DNA of 64,000 nt from Desulfatiglandales bacterium. Lineage in GTDB: Bacteria; Desulfobacterota; DSM-4660; Desulfatiglandales; Desulfatiglandaceae. A program made the position numbers. Location of the stretch: NCBI GenBank assembly GCA_963666345.1, contig OY762721.1, positions 32,001-96,000 of the forward strand, written 5' to 3'. Position 1 is the stretch's first letter. Each line of letters starts with the position of its first letter. Shown here in pieces: positions 6,001 to 9,000 of this stretch.

Positions 6001-9000
6001 GCCGGAACTGAGATGAGAAACCTTGATTAGATACCGGGAGGATAGCTTTTGGAACCAATAACAATGGGTATATTTGGCCTTTCAGCCATCTTTATCCTTG
6101 TAGTGCTGGGAATGAGAATCGCCTTTGCCACAGCCCTTGTAGGTTTTGTCGGAATATGGTCCATGAAAAATATCGTGGTGGCAGGCAAAGTGCTCGGCTT
6201 TCTGCCTCATGCCATAGTAGCGCACTACTCACTGAGCGTCATCCCTCTTTTTATCATTATGGGATATTATGCGTACTACGCAGGCTTGACCGATGACATA
6301 TTTCATACGGCCAGACAGTGGATCGGCCACCTGCCCGGAGGGCTGGCCATAGCGACCGTATTCGGATGCGCGGGTTTTGCCGCATGCACAGGCGCCAGCA
6401 CGGCATCGGCTGCCATAATGGGAAGGGTAGCCATCCCTGAAATGAGGAAGTATGGATATCACCCCCGGCTTGCTGCCGGTGTTGTAGCAGCCAGCGGCAC
6501 CCTGGCATCACTAATCCCCCCGAGTGTCGTATTGGTGATATATGGAATAATAACAGAGCAGTCAATCGGTGCTCTGCTAATAGGCGGTTTCATACCTGGT
6601 GTAATATCCGCCGTCATTTATGCGGGCATGATATATGCCAGAGTAAAGATAACGCCTGAACTCGGTAAGTTGCAACCTGCGGTTTCCTGGGGGGAAAGGT
6701 TCAGGTCCCTGAAGGGGACATGGGGCGTGATGTTGCTGATAATACTTATCGTAGGGGGGATCTATTCGGGGGTGTTTACCCCCACCGAGGCTGGGGGGGC
6801 AGGGGCATTTGGTGCCTTTCTAATGGCCCTGGCCATGAGAAGACTTACATTGGCCAGGTTCAAAGAGTCCCTCCTTGAAACAGGCCATACCACAATCATG
6901 ATTTTTTCCATAATAGTCGGAGTGCTCATATTCGTAAGGTTCCTTGCCCTTACGGGGCTTCCCAGGGAGTTTTCCGAGTTTGTACTGGAGCTTCCCCTGC
7001 CGCCTATTGTGGTGATTTTCATGATTCTAGGGATATATGTTTTTCTTGGAATGTTTCTTGATGCCATAGGGATGATGATGCTCACTCTTCCTATTGTTTT
7101 CCCCTCGGTCGTTGCCCTCGGGTTTGACCCTATATGGTTCGGGATAATTCTTGTAAAGATGTGCGAAATCTGTCTTATAACTCCTCCGGTTGGGCTTAAC
7201 GTCTATATCGTGAGAAGCGTTGCCCCTGACATCCCGCTGGAAGAGATATTCAGAGGGATAATCCCTTTTCTTGCAATGGATATACTAACTGTTATACTCT
7301 TTGTCTTGTTCCCTCAGATTATTACCTTTCTGCCGGGCAAGATGGGAATGTAGGCTCCCCCGGTTTCTTCACCGGGCTGGGGTATATGACCAGCCATCCC
7401 CCTTTTCAAAGGGGGATGTTGCCGCCCCGCATTATTCGATAAGAAATTTGTTCAATAGACAGAATGACTAACCCAAACCGGTAAGCAAGGGTTGCTGTTG
7501 CCTAAGGGATATGATTTTATCTTATAATTTGGCTGCAAACAACTTTTCCTCCGGCAATGTCTTGGATGCACGATTGACAAAATGTTTTATTACGAGCAAT
7601 TGGCATCGAAAAGTTCTTAAAGCAAAAGAGGGAATTGGGCTTCTTGAGAAATTATATTTACACGAAATTTTCCTTCGTATATATTGTTTCAATCATTAAA
7701 GATTAACAAGCGCCGGAAGTTTAAATCACTCATTTTTGCTGGAAAGCCATGAAAAGACTCAACCCCGAATATGTAAGAGCTGCGACAAAACTGGTTAACG
7801 GTAATCCATACTTCAATCTCCTTTCAATGGAAATGAAAGGCTTTGAACTTGAAAGTTGCACCATGGAGGTGGAGATTCAAAAAAAACACCTCCAGAATTT
7901 CGGCATCGTTCATGGAGGAGTTTGTTCATCTCTTGTCGATGCCGCGGCTTTCTGGGCCGTTTATCCTCAGATAGAAGAAGGCCTTGGAATGATAACTGTC
8001 GAACTGAAGATAAACTTCCTTGCCCGTGCCATGAGCGGATATCTTACGGCCAGGGGAAAAAGCATAAAGGTGGGGAATACGATCTGCCTTGGTGAGGCTA
8101 CGGTTGAAAATAATCAAGGAAGGCTTCTTGCACACGGGACTTCGACAATGATGGTATTAAAAGACCTGGGTATTAAGGGGAGTGAAAGGTTTCCTCCGAA
8201 ATTTCTCGATTGATTTTTAATTTCAGGTTCAATTTTTTTGTCTCTATGTGAGAGGTTTTCATGGATAAATTGATTCAAGATACTCATCCTTTCCGGTTAC
8301 CTTATTTTTTAAGGTGCGTAAGAGGGGTACTTTGTTTTCTGTTTCTGTTTATCCCGGAAAGCGGATCGTGCGGGCAATTCATGATTTATGAGGTGCTGAA
8401 CGGAGGCACAGTCATGGCAGGTGGATACGACCTGAACTGTCTTCCCTGAAAGGATATTGCCGTTGAGGTCGGTCTGGCCGGAATTGAAACACCTGGTGCC
8501 TCATCCGATAATACCCTGACCAGACATGTTTCCATGTTGGGACAAGAATTTCTCTCGGACATGCTGCTTGATGAAATTGTAGAGATAAAGGGCTATGGGC
8601 TGGGCAGGGATGATGTCCTTCTGGGCGTTATTTTTCTTGAAGGGGCAAATGTAAATCTGGAAATGCTTAGAAGGGGACTGGCAAGAGTGAGCTGTGACAT
8701 GCCCCCCCAAGACTTTGACCTTGCGCCTTACATGTCCGCACAAATGGAAGCAAAAAGGGGTAAACGGGGGATCTGGGCTAAGTCATCTGAACTCTCCCCA
8801 CTCCGTTCAAACAACTGATTCAAGCATCCTGTCCTTATGCTCGGATTTCAGGGAAAGTATCGACCTGGCTTCATCAGGGGATGCCGGTTCCCTGCCTGTC
8901 TCGTTGGCAATACGAACTATCTTTTCTACAAGAAGCGGGTTTGAGGCGTGTGATCCGTCAGGCATAAACAGATTGTCTTCCATTCCCACCCTGACATGAC

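Follow-up and report, generated by a model that had tools for sequence, protein, structure and literature searches.

The closest described proteins to the product analyzed here are thermonucleases of the staphylococcal nuclease (SNase) family (Pfam PF00565; structure 1sta; NCBIfam models NucI NF047694 and EcnA NF047969). With these it has in common the fold, a probable N-terminal export signal and GIDAPE- and GIW-type motifs. Asp21 and Asp40 are the calcium ligands of the nuclease. Glu43 acts as the general base, and Arg35 and Arg87 bind phosphate (PMC8436206, accessible portion); no paper treating all five catalytic residues together was found in the literature search. The immediate relatives without selenocysteine (Sec) within the order keep DGDT, R, D and E. 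The Sec family, in contrast, adds an 8-residue insertion containing CxxU, has lost the calcium ligands, the general base and the SPxxW tail, and scores far below the cut-offs of both NucI and EcnA. The SN domains of Tudor-SN/SND1 (PDB 4qmg, 3bdl) are likewise SNase-fold domains with diverged active sites, but those proteins are eukaryotic, cytoplasmic, tandem, RNA-binding and without Sec.

Bacterial CxxU selenoproteins (SELENOW-like, AhpD/CMD-like, GrdA, HdrA, BtuF-like and the FCYXU type of TonB receptor; PMC13188914, Table 1) resemble the present family in the CxxU motif, in an in-frame UGA with a downstream SECIS and in a deltaproteobacterial host with a large selenoproteome, but none of those catalogued has an SNase/OB scaffold. 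In thioredoxin-fold CxxU oxidoreductases the motif lies at the N terminus of a helix, whereas here it lies in a β-hairpin loop of an OB fold. Conversion of Cys to Sec is the proposed origin of many bacterial selenoproteins (PMC13188914, text as accessible). Cys homologues appear to exist for every known selenoprotein, and deep-Sep may miss those that have none (PMC12013277, text as accessible). Catalogues and predictors assume that selenoproteins descend from enzymes with Cys and use Cys homologues as a filter, according to the accessible parts of both papers (PMC13188914, PMC12013277).

No nuclease-fold entry occurs in the 119-family Table 1 of the 2026 review (PMC13188914). The word "nuclease" is absent from the accessible text and supplements of BSepDB (PMC13326102) and of deep-Sep (PMC12013277), and from the main text of SelCysML (PMC13745706). 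The families of Haft and Tolstoy 2025 were compared as rows of the review table and as NCBIfam models, and no model of NCBIfam 20.0 was over cut-off for the Sec protein. No description of a Sec SNase family was found in the literature searched, the scope of which stopped short of subscription journals and bioRxiv supplements. By fold the predicted protein is a member of the SNase superfamily that belongs to no catalogued selenoprotein family, with a CxxU presumably of the thiol-redox or metal-binding type.

One reading frame through an in-frame UGA

The window is the whole stretch of 64,000 nucleotides analyzed (G000:C1:32001-96000), whose position 1 is contig position 32001. The annotation splits the gene in two (g00034 and g00035), and members of the family are deposited as truncated "thermonucleases" and 49-residue "hypothetical proteins". 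The features of the locus are as follows.

8250..8255, + strand: Shine-Dalgarno-like GAGAGG, 5′ of the ATG (sequence)
8261..8818, + strand: whole gene of the SNase-fold selenoprotein (g00034 plus g00035), 185 codons as a single frame, Pfam SNase E 7.7e-12
8261..8371, + strand: probable Sec-pathway signal peptide, residues 1–37, from hydrophobicity
8429..8452, + strand: 8-residue insertion D57–K64 with Cys60 and Sec63, at the tip of the β2–β3 hairpin (alignment; AlphaFold loop)
8447..8449, + strand: in-frame TGA, codon 63, predicted to be read as Sec (TGA in 44/44 loci with TGN allowed)
8467..8484, + strand: SECIS-like element, stem GGUC/GGCC, loop GGUCU, 21 nt from UGA to loop (conservation)
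8467..8479, + strand: core GGTC-GGT-CTGGCC (13 nt), 17 nt 3′ of the TGA (sequence)
8471..8473, + strand: codon at the SNase Arg35 position, Gly in the window, covered by the SECIS loop

The motif CLPU is read directly at the TGA site of the window sequence. Related metagenome loci were collected with a DNA pattern in which the site was TGN, permitting TGA, TGC, TGT and TGG alike, downstream wobble positions were free, and an upstream Tyr, Asp and Cys were fixed. TGA occupied the site in 44 of 44 loci (38 metagenome stretches and six genome loci), and in the relatives the start codon lies 49–52 codons 5′ of it. Removal of three duplicates and three partial sequences left 38 distinct complete mature proteins, 37–49% identical to the window protein. 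Viral contigs gave 0 matches, and a single-protein search for related loci in genome contigs gave no match. A protein search independent of the DNA pattern returned 76 short N-terminal clusters, 65 of which end exactly at D-x-x-C-x-x-stop; the other 11 comprise one with Trp for Cys, three ending in E-Y-G-stop or D-Y-G-stop and seven unrelated truncations. The proposal of the earlier note that g00034 and g00035 form one gene through an in-frame UGA is upheld by these two counts. It had also pointed to database calls truncated at their N termini, and 54 of the 120 best profile matches proved to be calls that begin just after the site, with no Cys pair in the region among the remainder of those 120.

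Searched order-wide, 79 of 209 genomes contained a homologue. The five best matches after the window's own each had one TGA, at the same site and within D-x-x-C-x-x-U, which raises to five the other genomes in which the TGA with a Cys three residues before it recurs. A profile search of the 209 genomes returned the same six Sec-gene genomes and no further ones; of the six, five belong to family f2 and one, that of the window, to family f1. Among 401 genomes sampled across the phylum, the Sec gene was present in one, the window's own. The range of the family is narrow: six of 209 genomes, in one order. Two other TGA-containing matches (G171 and G141) carry the TGA at other positions, look like broken genes and were rejected as unrelated.

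None of the 44 TGN matches was a Cys-for-Sec form, and of 211 full-length proteins in which the hairpin was readable (the best 120–150 matches per search), 0 had a Cys pair or the 8-residue insertion. Both of the corresponding earlier statements, that homologues without Sec lack the insertion and that there is no Cys-for-Sec orthologue, still hold. A Cys homologue at the Sec position is the usual filter for selenoproteins and no requirement of recoding.

Substitution rates were compared in 385 pairs of 70–97% DNA identity, from which the window was excluded and which are not independent of one another. dN/dS was 0.117 in the 25 codons that precede the TGA, a value lowered by the Tyr, Asp and Cys fixed in the search pattern, and 0.305 downstream. 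The region upstream of the TGA is clearly coding, in frame and under purifying selection. It is extremely improbable that the locus is instead two genes or a pseudogene, with the UGA a true stop and a restart at a Met four codons on, or that TGA stands for Trp or Gly under another code. That Met is nearly invariant in the family and gene callers start there, but the window has GTT at this position, a restarted product would be without its signal peptide and two of the barrel strands, and the codons upstream are the most constrained. Moreover, a nonsense mutation would not remain TGA in 44 of 44 loci down to ~35–40% protein identity, the gene ends with its own TGA stop, and the genome is on code 11 with a tRNA-Sec.

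The host genome (4.16 Mb, with this as its only SNase gene) contains SelA, SelB, SelD and tRNA-Sec, all of which were found as reported earlier. The SelD gene itself contains a TGA, as do many other host genes in a coding-potential scan, including HdrA-like, FdhA, PrxU, HesB-like and rhodanese-like genes. SelA or SelB is present in four of the five other Sec-gene genomes; SelB was not found in the remaining search target, G001 (73% complete; SelA was outside that search). We are highly confident that UGA63 is read as Sec, an insertion that would require SelB to bind the hairpin 17 nt further on. The two annotated genes almost certainly encode a single exported protein, nuclease-like but deprived of its cutting residues, that has acquired Sec in an inserted loop.

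The SECIS-like hairpin and the former nuclease site

The sequence GGTC-RGK-YTGGCC-GGAAT begins 17 nt past the TGA in 44 of 44 Sec loci. Its 13-nt core has 0 mismatches in all 44, compared with 2–8 in 30 of 30 loci of non-Sec homologues, which differ from the core although the residues encoded are similar. In the 385 pairs, synonymous divergence (pS) was 0.19 in the 12 SECIS codons versus 0.47–0.53 elsewhere, a suppression that supports an RNA signal in this region. TGA followed after 17 nt by the core occurs once in the genome, which has 165,383 TGA triplets; a looser genome-wide SECIS regular expression gave 181 matches, mostly spurious, and was set aside.

With a consensus stem of 5 bp (4 bp in the window) and a G-led loop 21 nt from the UGA, the hairpin agrees with the published bSECIS geometry, which is a G-led loop of 3–9 nt on a stem of 4–16 bp at 16–37 nt from the UGA (PMC13188914, accessible portion). 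As the earlier note had said, the element resembles those of the host's FdhA and HdrA genes: the loop GGUCU is identical to that of the two FdhA genes and of a rhodanese-like gene, and is close to the AGGU of HdrA. Counting against it, the hairpin differs from the minimum free energy fold of the window's first 60 nt. The hairpin alone is weak, with −3.1 to −4.5 kcal/mol where the published bSECIS model has −7.5 or lower (PMC13188914, accessible portion). Rfam gave no SECIS match. Because the stem pairs are invariant, no covariation is visible either way.

The mature domain was modelled with AlphaFold from 113 sequences, with Sec modelled as Cys (pLDDT 90; an earlier model from 38 sequences had pLDDT 66 and was replaced). 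Its best structural match is staphylococcal nuclease 1sta (Z 17.8, rmsd 2.3, 126 residues), which together with the Pfam match (E 7.7e-12) secures the SNase fold proposed earlier. The CxxU loop (pLDDT 67) lies between strands E13–18 and E30–35 of the mature domain, and alignment to SNase puts the insertion at the β2–β3 turn, which is presumably at the opposite end of the hairpin to Asp21 and Arg35. The OB domain would now be a scaffold, with Cys60-x-x-Sec63 displayed on an exposed loop of the hairpin and remote from the former active site. A hydrophobic N-terminal segment is present in all Sec forms (11-residue window 2.6 here, median 3.0 in 44 loci) and is probably a signal peptide for export, as had been proposed; hydrophobicity and sequence pattern are what speak for it.

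The earlier note had described an altered DGDT motif, and the losses go further. D21 is kept in 2/38 Sec forms versus 62/75 non-Sec homologues, R35 in 11/38 versus 66/75, D40 in 15/38 versus 69/75, E43 in 8/38 versus 68/75 and R87 in 23/38 versus 48/75; at least three of D21, R35, D40 and E43 are kept in 0/38 versus 68/75. The C-terminal SPxxW tail remains in one of 41 complete Sec loci versus 30 of 30 non-Sec loci. The features by which an active thermonuclease is recognized (calcium ligands, general base and phosphate-binding Arg) are mostly wanting in the Sec forms. Very probably the Sec-form protein no longer cuts nucleic acid, because its calcium ligands and general base are gone.

The old cleft might still bind a nucleic acid or nucleotide (a 3′,5′-bisphosphate such as the adenosine end of CoA, for instance); CxxU would then be either a redox switch or a catalyst that extends to the pantetheine thiol. 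The Arg87 and Arg35 retained in part of the family, a second clade (described below) that keeps R35, D40, E43 and R87, and the CoA enzymes encoded nearby all speak for such binding. The cleft residues vary freely, however. In the window protein R35 is replaced by Gly, D40 by Glu, E43 by Gly and R87 by Val, and the net charge is −7; a signal peptide would keep the protein apart from cytoplasmic CoA. We consider this reading improbable.

A new observation is that the SECIS loop overlies the former catalytic Arg35 codon. The loop triplet is only AGG, AGT or GGT, encoding Arg in 11, Ser in 25 and Gly in 2 of the 38 proteins; this restriction suggests that the RNA signal, and not the enzyme, now governs the codon at the Arg35 position.

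Gene neighbourhood and candidate function

The Sec gene closes a same-strand run in the window, with one convergent gene beyond it.

1..3687, + strand: acyl-CoA ligase of PRK06187 type (3′ part), carboxyltransferase (decarboxylase alpha-like) and glutaryl-CoA dehydrogenase Acd-like genes; PRK06187 and Acd over cut-off
4324..7353, + strand: TRAP transporter dctP-dctQ-dctM; orthologues (DctP 72–85% identical) flank the Sec gene in relatives
7749..8213, + strand: PaaI-type hotdog thioesterase, 47 nt upstream of the Sec gene, same transcript probable
8807..9751, − strand: beta-keto acid cleavage enzyme, overlapping the last 12 nt of the Sec gene; not conserved beside it elsewhere

Upstream of the window the run includes a second dehydrogenase, a family III CoA-transferase, a CoA-transferase/hydrolase, and GlcD-like and creatininase-like genes, together with a PrpD-like gene (labelled from reading the sequence; no NCBIfam match). 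Genes orthologous to the window's ligase, DctP or Acd (69–89% identity) are present at 22 of 40 other Sec loci, a thiolase-like/DUF35 pair linked to the same DctP at three further loci, and another family III CoA-transferase at seven; eight have no cluster gene. The ligase orthologue adjoins the Sec gene in 19 of the 40. None of 31 non-Sec loci had cluster genes, within flanks that were shorter (up to 1.5 kb versus 3–6 kb). An apparent link between the SNase cluster and DUF35 proteins was an artefact of a shared 24-residue tail. A scan for promoters and terminators gave results at chance level. RNA-library contigs cover parts of the cluster, one of them spanning 8140–8324 over the paaI/Sec gene junction; contigs cannot show transcription. 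The conserved acyl-CoA/TRAP neighbourhood and the second clade without Cys go beyond what the earlier note had described.

The ligase orthologue occurs in 20 of 209 genomes, including all six with the Sec gene, which is absent from the other 14; ten of these have SelB. Many of the genomes are incomplete MAGs, and related ones do not count as independent. In G004 the Sec gene and the cluster are on separate contigs. The Sec gene is usually within the acyl-CoA ligase/TRAP cluster, yet is dispensable for it. The window's cluster is 72–89% identical to that of the f2 genome G009, which suggests a transfer of cluster and Sec gene into the f1 lineage.

These data bear on whether the Sec protein belongs functionally to the cluster. 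It could be a redox CxxU selenoprotein of general periplasmic defence that was inserted once and has been hitch-hiking since; the 14 ligase-positive genomes without it, and a gene order around it that varies between subclades, would be expected from this. Across those rearrangements, however, the Sec gene stays by cluster genes, following the ligase or paaI in some loci and preceding the thiolase or dctP in others, often a few bases away, and it is found in the one f1 genome that has both an f2-like cluster and SelB. Hitch-hiking without a functional tie is on balance rather improbable.

The Cys/Sec pair could also be a soft-metal ligand (Hg, Cu, Zn or As), held alone or between two subunits, in a periplasmic metal scavenger or sensor for which the catabolic neighbourhood is incidental. 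A CxxU that sits on a flexible loop at the surface, and in no thioredoxin fold, would suit such a role, a ZraP-like metal-resistance gene lies directly upstream in two of 40 loci and ~5 kb off in a third, and the Sec gene can be missing where the cluster is present. Among the Sec forms, however, Cys and Sec are the only conserved potential ligands, with no conserved His or extra Cys, and 25 of the 40 loci are in the acyl-CoA/TRAP cluster and not beside metal genes. We regard a metal-binding role as unlikely.

The best reading, to which we give a probability of about 0.5, is a periplasmic pseudonuclease whose CxxU carries out thiol-redox chemistry; that CxxU also fits metal binding was counted against it. 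The product would be exported by its N-terminal signal peptide and fold as an SNase OB domain. Most likely the Cys/Sec pair would cycle between selenolate/thiol and selenenylsulfide in the periplasm and be recharged by a relay of the DsbD/CcdA type. A DsbD/CcdA domain is present in five of five Sec-gene genomes tested, and DsbD is also common elsewhere (10 of 14 control genomes). The CxxU might reduce a disulfide, a sulfenic acid or a peroxide, and the protein might give optional assistance to the cluster that takes up organic acids and activates them with CoA. The best PDB matches of DctP are distant (E 5e-21); no ligand was deduced, and there is no sign of a sulfur-containing substrate.

Origin of the family

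Quick trees were built with the insertion removed, the window row being left out of the second. The Sec forms fall on one side of a branch (SH-aLRT 96 and 97), and the CxxU family has a single origin. The first of them to branch off is L080, in which DAPE and the tail are retained, and the window protein has the longest branch among them (0.83).

A second clade contains several database calls that start after the site and keep R35, D40, E43, R87 and the tail, with N-terminal partners ending at A-E-[ED]-Y-G. The full-length entries P0273 and P0375 read Y-G-W-G-V-N at the site. Since P0273 is identical to the flanking fragments P0272 and P0254, the simplest account of its Trp is a TGA that was translated with table 4. 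The stop falls seven residues before V-R-L-A-G-I, exactly in the register of the window's Sec, inside a 3-residue insertion lacking Cys. A catalytically near-intact clade without Cys appears, from protein entries alone, to stop at the same site. In a free tree it forms its own branch (98), separate from the CxxU clade, and a constraint uniting both gave p-AU 0.54, by which a common origin is neither shown nor rejected. The G-U-G clade was not found in the genomes searched by profile.

The CxxU family seems to have arisen when an exported thermonuclease, in which the V-R-L-A-G codons also served as a SECIS, received an insertion. More tentatively, the gene could be a selenoprotein formed de novo. 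The SECIS would have been latent in those codons until a small insertion, seven codons upstream, gave rise to a UGA that could be decoded, a stage of which the G-U-G clade, without Cys and with its nuclease residues intact, would be the extant intermediate. The partner Cys would then have been added, the nuclease site would have decayed with Arg35 overwritten by the needs of the SECIS loop, and the protein would have been recruited to organic-acid uptake as a periplasmic CxxU redox protein.

This seems to be a real, uncatalogued selenoprotein family, notable for an apparent origin by insertion without a Cys counterpart. Selenium would here sit on a nuclease scaffold, and a SECIS in the coding region constrains a former catalytic codon. 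Proteins with Sec in sequence that relatives lack, and thus with no Cys homologues, would be missed systematically by Cys-based searches. On this small, well-folded protein it could be tested how a new Sec site originates and what chemistry it performs. The family suggests that selenoproteins can arise without a cysteine ancestor; the de novo route, if true, would be an origin that bypasses Cys-to-Sec conversion and is invisible to searches for Cys/Sec pairs.

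In-frame TGA codons elsewhere in the genome

Further in-frame TGA candidates were recorded on contig C1 of the window genome, with coding signal both before and after each TGA, and at least six HdrA-like/FdhA copies with TGA are present in this genome. An NCBIfam search with the gene at 419643 (-) returned no match.

Further in-frame TGA candidates (contig position, strand)
4012417 (-)
3128348 (-)
2311064 (-)
1328511 (-)
533531 (+)
2600974 (-)
977309 (-)
264405 (-)
3796893 (+)
2110125 (+)
419643 (-)

The catabolic cluster and its genes at other sites

Conserved catabolic cluster
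window 1-8213
G000:C1:18800-32800 (own-genome contig; locus L099)

The cluster contains two each of acyl-CoA dehydrogenases, carboxyltransferases, CoA-transferases and GntR, together with a ligase, TRAP, GlcD-like and creatininase-like genes. Orthologues of its ligase were present in 20 of the 209 genomes, most of them in family f2, and the cluster looks to have been transferred into the lineage of the window genome (family f1). In relatives, thiolase-like and DUF35 genes flank the selenoprotein (Sec) gene; their orthologues in the window genome (78% and 69%) were located at G000:C1:4099911-4101498 (L151), far from the Sec gene, where they adjoin another TRAP pair. An SNase-Sec gene has its C-terminal tail of 24 residues in common with a DUF35 gene (L043, L049), which suggests a small repeated DNA element in the lineage.

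Broken and outlying members

Two candidate loci, G171:C68 (L031) and G141:C20 (L032), were rejected, their premature stops or frameshifts bearing no relation to the Sec site; the G023 ligase and G024 SelB likewise carry such lesions unconnected with it. Of the database entries P0286 and P0349, one is an N-terminal fragment with Trp where Cys is expected and one a truncated family member labeled Syntrophobacteria by NCBI, reflecting either a family range that extends past the order or a binning or label issue.

Two further thermonuclease groups

Arg35 and Arg87 are also gone in a large non-Sec subclade of the same order (Y-V-[LM]-L-x-G, P-Y-x-x-x-L-I-G; loci L007, L011-L013, L015, L017, L021-L027, L029, L030 and L033-L037), which retains DGDT and DAPE and is probably another pseudonuclease group. 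A second thermonuclease clade (P0231, P0254, P0260, P0267, P0272, P0273, P0274, P0275, P0353, P0364, P0366, P0375, P0386, P0402 and P0419) is without Cys at the site, and its catalytic residues are largely intact. Its protein sequences place a conserved stop at the hairpin tip, in the same register as the Sec site, and two entries give this position as Trp. This clade is a candidate Cys-less selenonuclease.
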